The notes under the pieces are model-generated. The model was not told the DNA's origin, did no database searches, and saw only the letters and a list, made by a program, of their open reading frames with translations. DNA of 42,655 bases from a virus. Numbering within the stretch: the stretch's first letter is position 1; each line of letters begins with the position of its first letter. Below are positions 1 to 42,655 of the stretch, piece after piece. Position numbers and translations under genes: made by a program. The stretch is from UHGV virus genome UHGV-0324172; one strand, given 5' to 3'.

Positions 1-16
1 TGTGTATACTTCCGTA
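1..16. repeat. Left terminal inverted-repeat arm TGTGTATACTTCCGTA, candidate att half-site (P' arm)
   Basis: It is the reverse complement, with one mismatch, of 42624..42639 (TACGGAAGTATAGACA). A serine recombinase gene ends 6 nt before the right arm. Confidence 0.5.
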
Positions 17-189
17 AAAATAACCACGCTCATAAAGAACGTGGTAGCAAAATTTATAAAGGAGTAAAAAAGATTAAATTGTATGTAATTTAATTGTAGC
101 ACAGACCGTGTAACCAATGTAGTGTTAAACTATGTTTTTTAATATCAATCTAACATCTACATATTATAGACATAATTATAATTTATAAG

Positions 190-245: not shown

Positions 246-1172
246 CTAAGATTTTTCGATGTAATCACTATAATACGCCCACCGATATTTTTCACCTGTA
301 TTAGGATTACGCCCTGCATATTTCCTTTTCCCTCTGCAAACCATGACAATGTTATTTTCTTGTTTTAAATCAACTTCATCTATAGCTTCTTTAATACTTC
401 CGAAAATTTTATTATCGTTTAATCTAACAACTTTTCTAGTATTGTTTTTAGCTCCACCCCTCGGATTATATTCACCTAATTTTTTAAGAATAGACACTAT
501 TTTCTTTCTATATAATCCTGTTTCCCTGCTAATTTCCAAAAAAGATATTCCTTTTTTGTGTTGATCAATTAAGTACTTAACATCAACATTTAATATACGC
601 GTCATTACGGCGTTTTTTAAACTGTTTTTGTCGTAAACATTTAATATATCACTTAATTTTGAGTTTTTTATTTCTTTTAAAATATAATCCATATCAGATT
701 TACTGCAGTTTATAGCTACATAGTCCATTTCATTCTTTAAGCAATATTCTTCTTTAATTTTGTCTGAAAACAACATTCTATCGTTATACCACTTAGAGTT
801 TTTTCTAACATCATAATGCTGTTCGCCATGCATTTCTATACATATATTTTCTTTTGGTAAATAAAAATCAAAAGGCAACACATCTTTATAAACGCAATTG
901 TCAAATCTCATTTGTGAAATATAAAAGATGTTGTTATCCTTTAATAATTGTTCCATTAACCTTTCTGAATAAGATCTGTTATCAGCACACACTTTACATT
1001 TAAAACCTCTTCTTTTGATTTCTCCAGGGCTTTTTACTAGTTGTGTTTTACAATTAGGGCATACCCACAATATTTTTTGGGTGCTAGAACTACCTAGTTT
1101 TTTAGCGTGTTCTTTATCTTTAACAAATCTTCTGAGATAATCATTTTCATAAACCGTTTCTTTTATTGGCAT
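246..1172 (-). CDS. Putative homing-type endonuclease: N-terminal Zn-ribbon (CPNC...CKVC), central PD-(D/E)XK-like block (DFYLP...ICIEMHGEQH), C-terminal NUMOD-like DNA-binding repeats (IFGSIKEAID...CRGKRKYAG)
   Basis: Motifs read from the translation. Own extended -10 and RBS (GAGGTGG) immediately downstream of the endolysin terminator. Located at the prophage end where accessory (moron) genes usually sit. Confidence 0.45.
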   Translation of the reverse strand: MPIKETVYENDYLRRFVKDKEHAKKLGSSSTQKILWVCPNCKTQLVKSPGEIKRRGFKCKVCADNRSYSERLMEQLLKDNNIFYISQMRFDNCVYKDVLPFDFYLPKENICIEMHGEQHYDVRKNSKWYNDRMLFSDKIKEEYCLKNEMDYVAINCSKSDMDYILKEIKNSKLSDILNVYDKNSLKNAVMTRILNVDVKYLIDQHKKGISFLEISRETGLYRKKIVSILKKLGEYNPRGGAKNNTRKVVRLNDNKIFGSIKEAIDEVDLKQENNIVMVCRGKRKYAGRNPNTGEKYRWAYYSDYIEKS

Positions 1173-3481: not shown

Positions 3482-3990
3482 TATTCATTACCTCCAGTAG
3501 TATCAATCCAAATTTTAGTTGTGTCATTAGGGGCGTTCTCTCCAATAACAAAATTTTCTTCGCTTTCAGTTTGATTCTTAATTAATCCGTTTTTTACACC
3601 GTATTCAATCATTTCTTGCCATAAATCATGATTTTGTGTATTGATCAATTGCCTACCAATCACACTCTCTGTTACTTGAATTTTCGCTTTATTGTCGGAC
3701 GGGAATACATACTTGTTATCCACCCATATTTCTAATGAATACGTGTTTGCAGGGATAATTTGATTGATTACAACATCACACACATAGGCATTGTCATATT
3801 GCCTAACTGTAGTGTCGTAGATATATTTGACACCTGTACTGTCAGTGAGAAAAACTTTTGCAGGCAATCCTTCTAATTTTAAGTCTTCGTTGTTATTGTC
3901 AGACAAGATGTATCGCATGTGCGATAAGTCACCTTGTTTAATGCGATTGCCGTCTTGTGAGTCATTTAAATTAAGTACATTTATTAACAT
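3481..3990 (-). CDS. Hypothetical phage structural/accessory protein
   Basis: 169-aa ORF between the tail hydrolase and the lysis genes. No recognisable motif. Confidence 0.4.
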   Translation of the reverse strand: MLINVLNLNDSQDGNRIKQGDLSHMRYILSDNNNEDLKLEGLPAKVFLTDSTGVKYIYDTTVRQYDNAYVCDVVINQIIPANTYSLEIWVDNKYVFPSDNKAKIQVTESVIGRQLINTQNHDLWQEMIEYGVKNGLIKNQTESEENFVIGENAPNDTTKIWIDTTGGNE

Positions 3991-8437: not shown

Positions 8438-11103
8438 TATTTAGCACCCCACAATACTAATGCTATTGCACATCCACGTTCTTCAGTGTATTCAGAAGTT
8501 ATTTTCATGACACGACCTTTACCATTCACATTATCTTTATATCCTACACCTGCTCTACCGTTGATATAGTCGCCTGGTATAACGTCTTTTTCAATGTTCG
8601 TGTAGATTTGACCTAATAATCCGACTACATTCCATTCAGGTCGTTCTGAACGTGATTGATAATCGATTTTGTCGTTATATTCAGGGTTTTCTACTGGTAT
8701 GTCACGCCATTCGAAAGAAACATTTCCTTCATCGTCTACAAATTCAACTTGTTTTCTGTTTGTAATCGTTACTCCATACTCATTTTTTAAAAATCTATCT
8801 TTATGGTGGAATGTTTTTTCATTTGCTACCAATGCAGCAGTTCCAGATATAACGCCAATTGGTGTGTCATTAGGTTGCGCTTTTCTTATCTTATCGCCGT
8901 CTAATGTAACGATAGTTCCTAAATCGATTGCTAATCCATTTTGTGACTCAAATAACTCTGCGATATCGGCACTATCTTGTTTAAGTTGACCGGCTAAAGT
9001 TAAGTTTCCTGAATAAGTGCTTAAATCAAATTTAATGTTAGATGTAGAAGCATTACCACTAGAACCATATCCAGCGACAACATGATAGTTACCAGGTGAC
9101 TTAACACGATTACTATTAAGAATTAATTGTGTGTGTCCTGACTTGTCTGTTTCTGAATTTAACGAGTTGATAATACCACTACGTGATCCATAAGATTTGG
9201 AGTTAGCACCAGAACCTAATACAAAGCTACGATTACTGTATGCTTTCGAACCACCTGTTGACGCAATAACTGCACTAGCATTAGCTACGCCTGCACTTCC
9301 TGTAGACGCTATACTAGCACCACCTTTTCCAACTGTAGGAGGTGTGTCGTATTTTTCGCCGGCTATCCATGCAGGTGTTGAATAATTGTTTGCTGTGATA
9401 CCACTAATCATAGCGTGGTTATTTGTCAAACGTAATCCTATGCCCGAACCATTACCGTATAAGTTACAATTAGTTATTTTAGTATCGTATATTTTACTTC
9501 CAACACCGATACCGATATTGTTAGATGAATTCCAAATATTGATATTGTTTAAAATAACTCTTGAAGGTCTATTATCTCCGCCAAATAATCTAATATCTAC
9601 TTCTGCATTTTTAAAGTTACGCACATTAATATTATTAAGCGAGATGTTTTCGGACATGAATTGGATGGCTATTGCTGGTTGTTTTTTATCTAGTTTTCCA
9701 CCTTCTAATTTTCCGAAATCATCATCACCAATTGCAGTGAAATTATTGACTGATACATTTTTATAAGCACTGATTAATAATGCTCTAGGTGTTGAGCCTG
9801 GATACACACCATTGTATTTAGGGTTTAAAGCTAAGCAATTATTTAGCACCACGTCATAAGCAGTCAAACTTTTATTGTCCGTTTTAGCTCTATGATGACC
9901 GATGTGTCGAATGTTGTAAGCTCTTGTATCTTCGATTGATACGTGACCGTTAACGAACACACCACTTGCAGCACTTGCATTACTGTGTGCTTTGATTTCT
10001 AAACCACCGAAGTTACCTTTGGTTCTGTTGTTTGATAAGAACACATATTGTGAGCCATCGTCAATTTCTACACCGTTGTTATTACTTCCACCTGTTGGTG
10101 TATGTGCATAACAATTAGAAATTGTAATGTAACGAGAGTGATGGGTAGTGATACCATCATCTCCGCAACCATATACCTCACAATTATCAATATGAATATG
10201 CTTACTTTCTAATGCGTAAGGCACTCTGTTTCCATCGCCTTCGTAGTAATAATTGTCATTTGCATATGTTACATCGATACAGTGTAGTAAAGCGTCATAT
10301 GATTTAACGTTATAGATATATCCATTAGTTACACCCGCAAATCTAATGTTAGATGAACGAGAACCACCGGTAGCTTTAAGTGTTTTATTTTGTCTAAACT
10401 TATTCCCGTTGAACGAAAAACTTTCTAATGAAATGTTTTCAGCTCCACCACTCATTTTTAAGTTAGTGATACCAATATTTTCTGCAGGTGTTTCGTCCAT
10501 AAACTTAATTGTAGTAATGTCTTTACCTTGTCCTACCAAACGAGAGTTGTTAGGCATTTTAATACCTGTTGTAAGGTAAGTACCACCACTCATAGTTACC
10601 TGTACATTGCCGTTACCTAATGCGTCTTGGAAAGCTTTCGTACTGTCCTTTTGACCTGTAGGATCTCCGCCAAAGTCATCAACGTTAACAATACGTTGTA
10701 TTTTCTTAGTTAAGTCGGCTCTTAGTTCTTCTCTAGCGTTACTTTCTCTTAAAAAGTCGTGATATAGACGTTGGTGTAAAGAATCGAAACTTTGAGCGTC
10801 CATTGATGTGTGACTAGCTTTTAATTCGTTATTGCCATCACCGTTATGACCTAACACAAGATGTTCAATAAGTTCATCTTGATAATTTTCATGATTAGAT
10901 AATACGACATCTTTACCTTTTGTAGTTTTGTGTTTGATTTGATCAGTTGTATGCGCATTTTTTTGAGTGGTTAAATGCTCGTTAAAGCTATCATCACTTT
11001 TATTAGTCCAGTATTTTATTTGTTCGAAGTTATTCTCAAGTTGACTTACAAACTTTTGACTAAAGTACGAGTGAAGTTTCGTAATTAAGTTATCTAATTT
11101 CAA
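8437..11103 (-). CDS. Tail fibre/appendage protein with pectin-lyase-like right-handed beta-helix (candidate wall-teichoic-acid-binding or depolymerase module)
   Basis: 888 aa. Repetitive N/G/S-rich beta-helix signature (NGNK..., GGS..., NN[IV] repeats). Position after the Tal gene. Confidence 0.55.
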   Translation of the reverse strand: MKLDNLITKLHSYFSQKFVSQLENNFEQIKYWTNKSDDSFNEHLTTQKNAHTTDQIKHKTTKGKDVVLSNHENYQDELIEHLVLGHNGDGNNELKASHTSMDAQSFDSLHQRLYHDFLRESNAREELRADLTKKIQRIVNVDDFGGDPTGQKDSTKAFQDALGNGNVQVTMSGGTYLTTGIKMPNNSRLVGQGKDITTIKFMDETPAENIGITNLKMSGGAENISLESFSFNGNKFRQNKTLKATGGSRSSNIRFAGVTNGYIYNVKSYDALLHCIDVTYANDNYYYEGDGNRVPYALESKHIHIDNCEVYGCGDDGITTHHSRYITISNCYAHTPTGGSNNNGVEIDDGSQYVFLSNNRTKGNFGGLEIKAHSNASAASGVFVNGHVSIEDTRAYNIRHIGHHRAKTDNKSLTAYDVVLNNCLALNPKYNGVYPGSTPRALLISAYKNVSVNNFTAIGDDDFGKLEGGKLDKKQPAIAIQFMSENISLNNINVRNFKNAEVDIRLFGGDNRPSRVILNNINIWNSSNNIGIGVGSKIYDTKITNCNLYGNGSGIGLRLTNNHAMISGITANNYSTPAWIAGEKYDTPPTVGKGGASIASTGSAGVANASAVIASTGGSKAYSNRSFVLGSGANSKSYGSRSGIINSLNSETDKSGHTQLILNSNRVKSPGNYHVVAGYGSSGNASTSNIKFDLSTYSGNLTLAGQLKQDSADIAELFESQNGLAIDLGTIVTLDGDKIRKAQPNDTPIGVISGTAALVANEKTFHHKDRFLKNEYGVTITNRKQVEFVDDEGNVSFEWRDIPVENPEYNDKIDYQSRSERPEWNVVGLLGQIYTNIEKDVIPGDYINGRAGVGYKDNVNGKGRVMKITSEYTEERGCAIALVLWGAK

Positions 11104-25979: not shown

Positions 25980-26253
25980 TATTAAGGGAGGAGAAAAATT
26001 ACATGTTAAGTATTCATATCATCGTATCGGAAGCCGTGTTGTAAGATTCAATAAAACTACCCGCCACTCTGACGGATAGTTAAGCAATCGGATGTGCAAC
26101 GTCTAATCAAGGACGATAAACACTTATCCAATCACTTCGATATTGAATACCTCACCATAGTGCGAAAGGATAAACACTATGTCTTGTGAGGTAATTCTTA
26201 CAATATCATAATACACCGATTATAAACGGACTTACACACTTCAAAAGTCCACC

Positions 26254-41237: not shown

Positions 41238-42617
41238 GTGATGAATTATGAACGTAGCTATTTACGTTCGTGTCAGGTCAGTACATTAGAACAAAAAGAA
41301 CATGGATATTCTATTGAAGAACAAGAAAGAAAGCTCAAATCATTTTGCGAGATAAACGACTGGAGTGTATCAGACGTATTTATCGACGCTGGTTTCTCTG
41401 GCGCTAAGCGTGACAGACCGGAATTACAACGTATGATGAATGATATTAAACGGTTTGATTTAGTTTTAGTGTATAAGTTAGACAGGCTTACACGTAATGT
41501 GCGTGATCTACTTGATTTATTAGAGGTATTCGAACAGAATAACGTAGCATTCAGAAGTGCTACTGAAGTTTATGATACATCTACAGCTATGGGTAGACTG
41601 TTTGTTACGTTAGTTGGTGCTATGGCAGAGTGGGAAAGAGAAACCATTAGAGAGCGTGTTATGATGGGTAAACGCGCAGCGATTAAACAAGGTATGATAC
41701 TCACACCACCACCCTTTTATTATGATCGTGTAGATAACACTTACATTCCTAATGATTATAAAAAAGTAGTTTTATGGGCATACGACGAAGTGATGAAAGG
41801 TAATAGTTCAAAAGCTATAGCTAGAAAATTAAACGATTCAGATATACCACCTCCTAATGGCAAAAGGTGGGAAGATAGAACAATAACGAGAGCGCTAAGA
41901 AACCCTATAACAAGAGGTCATTATACTTGGGGAGATGTATTTATAGAAAACTCTCACGAGCCTATTATTACCGAAGAAATGTATCAACAAATAAAAGAAA
42001 GATTAGAAGAACGAATCAATACAAAAATAGTCAGTCACGTATCAGTGTTCAGAGGTAAATTTATTTGCCCGAGATGTGGTGGCACATTAACAATGAACAC
42101 AGCAACAAGAAAGAGAAAGAAAGGGTATGTTACTTATAAAACATATTATTGCAACACATGTAAGACTAAAAAACAAAGTTTCGGTTTTTCAGAGAATGAA
42201 GCATTGAGAGTGTTTCGTGATTACCTATCTAAACTAGACTTAGATAAATATGAAGTAAAGACAAAACAAAAAGACGATGTCGTTACTATTGATATAGACA
42301 AAATCATGGAACAACGTAAAAGGTATCATAAATTATATGCTAAAGGGTTAATGCAAGAAGAAGAATTATTTGAATTGATTAAAGAAACAGACGAAACAAT
42401 AGCAGAATATGAAAAGCAAAAAGAATTAGTACCCAGAAAATCACTAGATATAGATAAGATAAAAAAATTTAAAAATGCATTATTGGAATCATGGAAAATA
42501 TTCTCGTTGGAAGATAAAGCAGATTTTATTAAAATGGCTATTAAATCTATTGACATAGATTATGTAAAACTTAAAAACAGGCATTCTATCAAAATAAATG
42601 ATATAGAATTTTATTAA
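41238..42617 (+). CDS. int: Large serine recombinase (integrase); N-terminus disrupted by a 5-bp tandem duplication (possible pseudogene or sequencing error)
   Basis: Resolvase-type catalytic domain (VSTLEQ...YSIEEQ...VYKLDRLTRN), recombinase domain and Zn-ribbon (CPRCGG...CNTCK) plus C-terminal coiled-coil. The canonical MNVAIYVRVSTLEQ N-terminus is split across two frames by GTCAGGTCAG at 41272..41281. The track ORF starts at a GTG and reads MMNYERSYLRSCQVSTLEQ. Confidence 0.75.
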   Translation: MMNYERSYLRSCQVSTLEQKEHGYSIEEQERKLKSFCEINDWSVSDVFIDAGFSGAKRDRPELQRMMNDIKRFDLVLVYKLDRLTRNVRDLLDLLEVFEQNNVAFRSATEVYDTSTAMGRLFVTLVGAMAEWERETIRERVMMGKRAAIKQGMILTPPPFYYDRVDNTYIPNDYKKVVLWAYDEVMKGNSSKAIARKLNDSDIPPPNGKRWEDRTITRALRNPITRGHYTWGDVFIENSHEPIITEEMYQQIKERLEERINTKIVSHVSVFRGKFICPRCGGTLTMNTATRKRKKGYVTYKTYYCNTCKTKKQSFGFSENEALRVFRDYLSKLDLDKYEVKTKQKDDVVTIDIDKIMEQRKRYHKLYAKGLMQEEELFELIKETDETIAEYEKQKELVPRKSLDIDKIKKFKNALLESWKIFSLEDKADFIKMAIKSIDIDYVKLKNRHSIKINDIEFY

Positions 42618-42623
42618 CTTATG

Positions 42624-42639
42624 TACGGAAGTATAGACA
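42624..42639. repeat. Right terminal inverted-repeat arm TACGGAAGTATAGACA, candidate att half-site (P arm), 6 nt after the integrase stop
   Basis: Reverse complement (one mismatch) of 1..16. Confidence 0.5.
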
Positions 42640-42655
42640 CTCGATTAATATTTAA

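Follow-up and report, generated by a model that had tools for sequence, protein, structure and literature searches.

The two ends of the window, by which we mean the whole 42,655-nucleotide stretch of viral DNA analysed here (UHGV-0324172), very probably form a single phage attachment site. The 16-bp inverted repeats found there are best read as the outer halves of the P and P' half-sites of one serine-integrase attP, 48 bp long, whose sequence is divided between the end and the start of the window, a reading to which we give a probability of about 0.93. By direct reading and by recomputation, TACGGAAGTATAGACA at 42624-42639 matches the reverse complement (TACGGAAGTATACACA) of bases 1-16 (TGTGTATACTTCCGTA) at 15 of 16 positions; they differ only where G42636 meets the partner of base 4. 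Arm A begins 6 nt downstream of int, whose stop codon, TAA, occupies 42615-42617. When the end of the window is joined to its start, the arms are separated by the 16-nt spacer CTCGATTAATATTTAA (42640-42655). A sequence-only reading of the same DNA had claimed the repeat, its position behind int and the length of the spacer, and all three hold.

Chance does not readily produce such a repeat. We circularised the window, cut it elsewhere at 8,491 points and, at each, scored the closest inverted 16-mer match across the cut, comparing 40 nt from one flank with 40 nt from the other. Three of these cuts scored 14/16, the highest value seen, and 15/16 was never reached. This null was used instead of a listing of inverted repeats over the whole window, which held mostly long, low-identity chance pairs and left the terminal repeat unranked. 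A symmetry scan found 19 of 26 positions complementary about the axis 42647|42648, with no more than 12 of 26 at the 16 other axes. In the attP layout this axis splits the 8-bp overlap into equal halves, which points to AA as the central dinucleotide (Table 1).

Table 1. Features of the attachment site, its host counterpart and the adjoining integrase gene.
Feature	Position in window	Strand	Sequence or remark
attP	42624-42655 + 1-16		TACGGAAGTATAGACACTCG-ATTAATAT-TTAATGTGTATACTTCCGTA; 48 bp, 16-16-16 arm-spacer-arm
Arm A, outer P half-site	42624..42639		TACGGAAGTATAGACA; half-site positions 9-24 from the dyad
Inner P half-site bases	42640..42643		CTCG; phage-specific, absent from attB
8-bp overlap	42644..42651		ATTAATAT; common to attP, attB, attL and attR (alignment of all four)
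Central dinucleotide (putative)	42647..42648		AA; dyad axis of attP
First 4 nt of phage-specific P' half-site	42652..42655		TTAA; marks the window as the attP form
Arm B, outer P' half-site	1..16		TGTGTATACTTCCGTA; outer edge of attP
attB			..GGTACATGC-ATTAATAT-CGGATGTATACC..; in host pyridine-nucleotide-disulfide oxidoreductase gene
attB, ~40-bp form			GATGTATGGCGGTACATGCATTAATATCGGATGTATACCGAC
int, large serine recombinase	41241..42617	+	Annotated ORF of 458 aa; canonical ATG 41248 lies in another frame
Tandem duplication in int	41272..41281	+	GTCAG GTCAG; Val-Ser(nucleophile) codons

The prophage junctions carry much of the argument. The exact Int protein is carried by many S. epidermidis prophages, and the exact 458-aa sequence is indexed in 282 blocks of an assembly collection. 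Among the matches listed, the right neighbour of int was a truncated Pyr_redox_2 gene in 10 of 10 places. At all ten the int-proximal junction, attR, was identical to attP through ..TACGGAAGTATAGACACTCGATTAATAT and then ran on as CGGATGTATACC.. into the Pyr_redox_2 gene, leaving arm A linked to int and fused to host B' DNA. The attL end was located through a 308-aa ORF adjoining base 1 of the window. In the four prophages read there (L016, L019-L021), the junction at the end of the lysis genes was ..GGTACATGCATTAATAT|TTAATGTGTATACTTCCGTA.., with arm B fused to host B DNA that is the other half of the same host gene. These junctions support the earlier proposal that the arms are the P and P' sequences of a serine integrase, flanking the crossover and parting to opposite ends of the prophage. 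Alignment of attP, attB, attL and attR leaves only ATTAATAT common to phage and host, centred on the dyad of the repeat.

An uninterrupted attB, which the sequence-only reading had proposed looking for, was found. The reconstructed empty site, ACATGCATTAATATCGGATGTATAC, is present in nine metagenome contigs, where it reads GGTACATGC-ATTAATAT-CGGATGTATAC and so shares the core ATTAATAT. It sits in an intact 455-aa oxidoreductase ORF (..GGTCINIGCIPTK..), which in one contig (L089) spans 1604-2971 with attB at 1763-1787. The attB codons encode ..GGTC-INIGC-IPTK.., the redox-active CxxxxC motif (CINIGC). Judging from these junctions, lysogeny splits the host oxidoreductase gene at the codons of its redox motif. 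The exact 28-nt attB pattern had no match in the species-representative genome contigs, the S. epidermidis representative included; the Staphylococcus representatives may be lysogens at this site or differ there by SNPs. A codon-degenerate form of the pattern matched 66 loci in the same contigs, all in unrelated genera and none in Staphylococcus; these matches are paralogous or orthologous coding sequence of the GGTCINIGCIPTK type. Most lay in genera as distant as Bacteroides and Escherichia, indicating that the coding motif is highly conserved.

Within the 8-bp overlap, the point of exchange can be narrowed by a related phage. Phage 48 has T at the position of 42643 and C at that of 42651, and the published attL of its laboratory lysogen carries the phage base at the first of these and the attB base at the second (PMC8125051). 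This base pattern places the exchange within 42644-42650, ATTAATA(T). The symmetry of attP goes further and suggests a central dinucleotide at 42647-42648, the non-palindromic AA. The attB site is only weakly symmetric (12 of 26 positions), its best axes lying 0.5 and 1.5 bp away from the attP axis.

Exchange at another dinucleotide of the overlap in this same attP, such as TA at 42646-42647 or AT at 42648-42649, is unlikely, although it would fit both a comparison that narrows the site to 42644-42650 and an attB symmetry that, weak as it is, is highest 0.5-1.5 bp rightward of the axis in attP. The dyad of attP is unambiguous, 19/26 against at most 12/26. A palindromic central dinucleotide confers no polarity on the reaction, as is understood from the central dinucleotides of Bxb1 and phiC31. 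Both TA and AT are palindromic and would lack polarity, which AA would provide. Finally, characterised serine integrases cut at the centre of their sites (PMC3783163).

With exchange at the central AA, recombination would proceed as established for large serine recombinases. With both half-sites of attP bound by one Int dimer, synapsis would follow with a second dimer on attB. All four strands would then be cut at the central dinucleotide with a 2-nt stagger, one pair of half-sites would rotate, and the ends would be religated. The products, attL (B-P') and attR (P-B'), are present in lysogens, with arms B and A at opposite ends of the prophage and the host gene split.

Comparison with related phages supports a role for the arms as functional half-sites. 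Nine related phages keep the 48 bp, with changes at three positions only (42642, 42643 and 42651), all within the overlap or next to it, and arm A is identical in all nine. The inner bases 42640-42643 vary to CTTG in BE20 and HOB 14.1.R1 and to CTCT in phage 48. Beyond arm B the DNA falls into three unrelated flank classes, and the break comes exactly after ..TTCCGTA. StB20, a phage of S. capitis, has an identical attP site. The same 16-mer, which the earlier reading had suggested looking for next to int in other staphylococcal phages, is thus identical in the nine relatives and in StB20.

More distant phages show the arms changing together. In the coagulase-negative staphylococcal (CoNS) phages StB12 and StB27 (S. 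hominis), and in the loci L113 and L111, attP again lies right after the int stop codon in the 16-16-16 geometry, with arms TATGGAAGTATGCACA and TGTGTATACTTCCATA that carry matched changes relative to those of the window: in StB12 and StB27, TACGG becomes TATGG in one arm and CCGTA becomes CCATA in the other. The Int of this group is about 69-70% identical to that of the window at the protein level, and the int genes of StB12 and StB27 are about 77-78% identical to it at the DNA level over the aligned part. The spacer and core sequences of this group differ from those of the window (ATTAATCAATGTATAG in StB27). In L111, whose Int is 70% identical, the insertion as read by eye lies at the orthologous ..INHGCIPSK.. 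codons (approximately 3930-3990), in a different oxidoreductase gene copy or species. The Int lineage thus seems to follow this conserved coding motif.

The outer motifs of the half-sites may also be set differently in attP and attB. For the LI integrase of Listeria phage A118, the outer motifs, which contact the zinc-ribbon domain, sit about 5 bp closer to the centre in attB than they do in attP (PMC3783163). With the dyad fixed, the outer half-site motifs of the window's attP matched those of attB at 26 of 60 positions when shifted 5 bp outward, and at 11-19 positions for other shifts. Most of this signal comes from the B half-site (9/15 and 8/15), while B' matches best at +2. The pattern is consistent with a 5-bp outward displacement of the outer attP motifs, without proving it.

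Co-variation of the arms with Int also bears on a rival view, in which the repeat would be a terminator, or some other hairpin of no function, in the space where int and the lysis-side genes converge, and would lie at the window ends by coincidence. The site does lie between convergent genes, its 15/16 stem could fold in RNA, and a true terminator-like hairpin is nearby. Yet intrinsic terminators have a G+C-rich stem, a short loop and a T run, whereas the repeat has a 16-nt loop and no T tail, and our terminator scan passed it over and flagged that other hairpin instead (window 23-45, minus strand, outside attP). In lysogens the arms stand a whole prophage apart, each joined to host DNA, an arrangement a hairpin would not tolerate. 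Adding that the arms co-vary with Int in StB12 and StB27 and that 0 of 8,491 other cut points yield such a repeat, we regard this explanation as very improbable. The flagged hairpin, ACCACGTTCTTTATGAGCGTGGT followed by TATTTTT, just outside attP, probably ends the lysis-side minus-strand transcript.

It is equally hard to maintain that the window represents a prophage after excision, bounded by attL and attR and with some host DNA among its terminal bases. The int gene at one end and the lysis genes at the other do resemble a prophage map, and many databases cut prophages at their att repeats. However, the window ends in TTAA, the P' sequence, where every prophage junction that we read has CGGA; there is no direct repeat of ATTAATAT at the left end; and the joined end and start are 100% identical to unbroken virion DNA of phiIPLA7. 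A tyrosine-integrase (lambda-like) att site, for which we would look for arm-type sites over about 200 bp, a 6-8-bp overlap cut at its edges and often a tRNA target, was rejected: Int contains a Resolvase domain, no Phage_integrase domain was found in it, the conserved element is just 48 bp, and the target is a protein-coding gene.

The attP reading, in contrast to that of an excised prophage, agrees with the state of the window as a phage genome. In phiIPLA7, CNPH82, 456, 459, 27, CNPx and PG-2021_93 the end of the window runs directly on into its start, at 98-100% identity; in the phiIPLA7 record, at 100% identity, the last base of the window corresponds to position 26044 and the first to 26043. 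Adjacency of end and start in at least seven sequenced phage genomes identifies the window as a circular permutation opened inside attP. By these comparisons the window holds a complete circular phage genome whose opening point lies 4 bp past the right edge of the att overlap. The proposal that the element had been cut at its recombination sites is therefore close in that the cut is near the crossover, and off in that the 8-bp overlap ends 4 bp to the left of the cut, with the likely central dinucleotide about 8 bp to its left. That reading had also held that phage DNA continuing beyond both ends would speak against it. Taken literally this is what the continuous virion genomes display, and the att assignment is unharmed by it.

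Other records have been opened in similar places. StB20 is cut 1 nt from the cut point of the window, and IME1348_01, StB12 and StB27 are also cut inside attP, which suggests that the start of the window was probably chosen on purpose rather than arbitrarily. The window itself belongs to a CNPH82/phiIPLA7-like Staphylococcus epidermidis siphovirus of the genus Rockefellervirus, and its ends match phiIPLA7, CNPH82, PH15, 27, 48, 456, 459, E72, CNPx, IME1348_01 and BE20. In INPHARED no record was identical over 18000-42655; the best, IME1348_01, reached 61% coverage at 95% identity. On this comparison the phage is another mosaic member of the Rockefellervirus group with the known int-attP module.

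Mosaicism is also seen next to attP. The 308-aa ORF (window 246-1172, minus strand) lies between the endolysin gene and attP and has weak zinc-finger and I-HmuI NUMOD-like matches; its product may be endonuclease-like. The exact 308-aa protein also occurs in tyrosine-integrase prophages with different cargo (L014, L017), indicating a mosaic, mobile gene.

This attachment site has been described before. Fišarová et al. (2021, mSphere) reported the overlap ATATTAAT, which is ATTAATAT on the strand of the window, flanked by imperfect inverted repeats; in every laboratory lysogen of the related phages the integration is at this site, and for one of them attL was amplified by PCR and sequenced (PMC8125051). 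GenBank KY653120 (IME1348_01) annotates ATATTAAT as attP-L and attP-R. The S. epidermidis phages 27, 48, 456, 459, E72, PH15, CNPH82 and IPLA7 (formerly phietaviruses, now Rockefellervirus) have the same site. Compared with the Rockefellervirus attP, that of the window has the same FAD-dependent/pyridine-nucleotide-disulfide oxidoreductase target and a near-identical serine integrase, with no substantive difference (PMC8125051). The attP reading is thus a correct rediscovery of what PMC8125051 and KY653120 had already placed on record.

Outside the staphylococcal phages the likenesses are more general. The attP of Streptomyces phage phiC31 is also a serine-integrase site with inverted repeats around a short core and a minimal length of about 40-50 bp; its sequence is unrelated, and its integrase belongs to another, much larger subfamily. 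The resemblance to phiC31 that the sequence-only reading pointed out is real, though it is generic to the family and not specific to these two sites. Phage A118 integrates into comK. The LI integrase of A118 shares with the Int of the window the Resolvase, Recombinase and zinc-ribbon domains, integration inside a host gene, and an attP of about 50 bp with an imperfect dyad about the central dinucleotide (Rutherford et al. 2013, PMC3783163). It differs in that the sequences are unrelated, and in that phage and host here share 8 bp rather than the dinucleotide alone. The +5 shift of the window, moreover, is clear for only one attB half-site, and its Int is known from sequence.

The integrase has the domains of its class, and one of its features is less ordinary. 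Pfam matches are strong for Resolvase (E 3.1e-41, 141 bits) and Recombinase (E 6.9e-22, 78 bits), with Zn_ribbon_recom at 23.6 bits (E 6.8e-5), just under the curated cut-off of 25.3 bits. The 5' end of int contains a 5-nt tandem duplication at the codons of the catalytic serine (Table 1). In StB20, StB27 and StB12 the gene begins ATG AAC GTA GCT ATT TAC GTT CGT GTC AGT ACx, encoding MNVAIYV/CRVST, the canonical N-terminus of serine recombinases. The window and every S. epidermidis relative examined, including ten integrated prophages (L004-L013) and the phages reported to form laboratory lysogens, read CGT GTC AG GTC AGT instead. From the canonical ATG at 41248 the frame encodes MNVAIYVRVRSVH and then stops at TAG 41287-41289. 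The product from the annotated ATG at 41241, MNYERSYLRSCQVSTLEQ (start MNYERSYLRSCQVS), is without the Arg at position -2 from the nucleophile, a residue that all non-duplicated homologues compared have kept. The duplication thus breaks the canonical int frame, which suggests translational recoding. The anomalous frame of int counts against the main attP reading, as do the weak symmetry of attB, the optimum of B' at +2 and the lack of an exact attB match in the S. epidermidis representative.

This duplication is widespread. Scans of IMG/VR yielded about 60 loci with the same 5-nt insertion (GTCAG|GTNAGT); the carriers are L004-L013, L103-L108, L109-L113 and approximately 45 IMG/VR loci among L114-L174. 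The first copy is always GTCAG, and the second Val codon varies synonymously among GTC, GTG and GTT. The gene bodies behind it fall into no fewer than four clearly separate Int lineages, whose identity to the Int of the window ranges from 42 to 100%. We found the single-copy 5' module in IMG/VR solely with gene bodies of the StB20 type and never with an int of the S. epidermidis type. Phase variation by reversible DNA slippage, back to a single GTCAG ahead of integration, is unlikely on this account and as the integrated prophages L004-L013 all keep the duplication. An Int that is 84% identical and has the same anomalous N-terminus (P0002) comes from a 3.6-kb contig under the label 'Pseudomonas aeruginosa' (TPA); it is probably contamination or a mislabelled staphylococcal sequence.

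Three features of the sequence favour the canonical start together with recoding: Shine-Dalgarno (SD) spacing, the pattern of substitutions and the Pfam scores. The SD sequence (GGAGGTGAT in several loci) overlaps the annotated ATG at 41241 and lies 9 nt before the canonical ATG at 41248. Upstream of the duplication there are four polymorphic positions (five variant alleles). Read in the annotated frame, all are non-synonymous (N>Y/H, E>G, S>R, C>R); read in the canonical one, each is untranslated, synonymous or conservative. The annotated product scores 145.2 bits against Pfam Resolvase (positions 7-143), the product of a +5 hop 157.2 bits (1-143), and that of a -1 shift 151.0 bits. While the attP itself appears ordinary, we hold tentatively, at somewhat less than even odds, that Int may need translational recoding.

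The most economical hypothetical route to an active enzyme would be a +5 ribosomal hop. With AGG in the A site, peptidyl-tRNA-Val would leave GUC (41272-41274) and land on the GUN that follows (41277-41279), and the hop would restore exactly MNVAIYVRVSTLEQ, that is, the wild-type protein. AGG is fairly rare in the genes of the window (3.4 per 1000 codons). Short hops (+5, +6) and rare-codon-triggered bypassing in a phage gene have precedents (PMC10732093 and references therein). As alternatives, a -1 shift would give ..VRVRVSTLEQ (N-terminus MNVAIYVRVRVSTLEQ), or an active enzyme might be made from the annotated ATG 41241 without the conserved Arg at -2. Reading by eye found no X XXY YYZ slippery heptamer in 41248-41289, which speaks against classical -1 frameshifting. 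Termination and reinitiation at the overlapping GUGA of the L109 and L113 variants was rejected, as its product would start one residue before the catalytic Ser. The fold of the int 5' region as a whole was not significant (z = -0.92). Our literature searches found no mention of the anomalous N-terminus.

Two further observations concern structure in this region and its relatives. An 11-bp RNA hairpin, UAUGAACGUAG / UUACGUUCGUG with three G-U pairs (window 41247-41272), encloses the canonical AUG and extends to the opening G of the first GTCAG. The hairpin is part of the 5' module that does not vary, and StB27 lacks it. In L109, whose Int (P0044) is 42% identical, the GTCAG insertion has GTGAG as its second copy, which brings frame 0 to an immediate stop (AGG TGA). 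The int stop codon of L109 is directly followed (3910-3960) by a different palindrome, TAGTGTTACA, 14 nt, TGTAACACTA, then TTTTTAT, which may be an attP, a terminator or both.

For the attachment site, the value of the analysis lies mainly in annotation: it sets the limits of attP (48 bp) and the likely crossover, AA at 42647-42648. Defined attP/attB pairs of serine integrases are useful orthogonal tools for genome engineering. The site was recognised correctly from sequence alone, and as it stands this adds little new significance. The frame of int would have more to offer. If it occurs, a +5 hop would be a built-in throttle or sensor on the synthesis of the integrase. Confirmation would reveal either natural short translational bypassing or a serine recombinase that works without its conserved Arg, and in either case the anomaly would be one fixed in a temperate-phage family of a major skin commensal.
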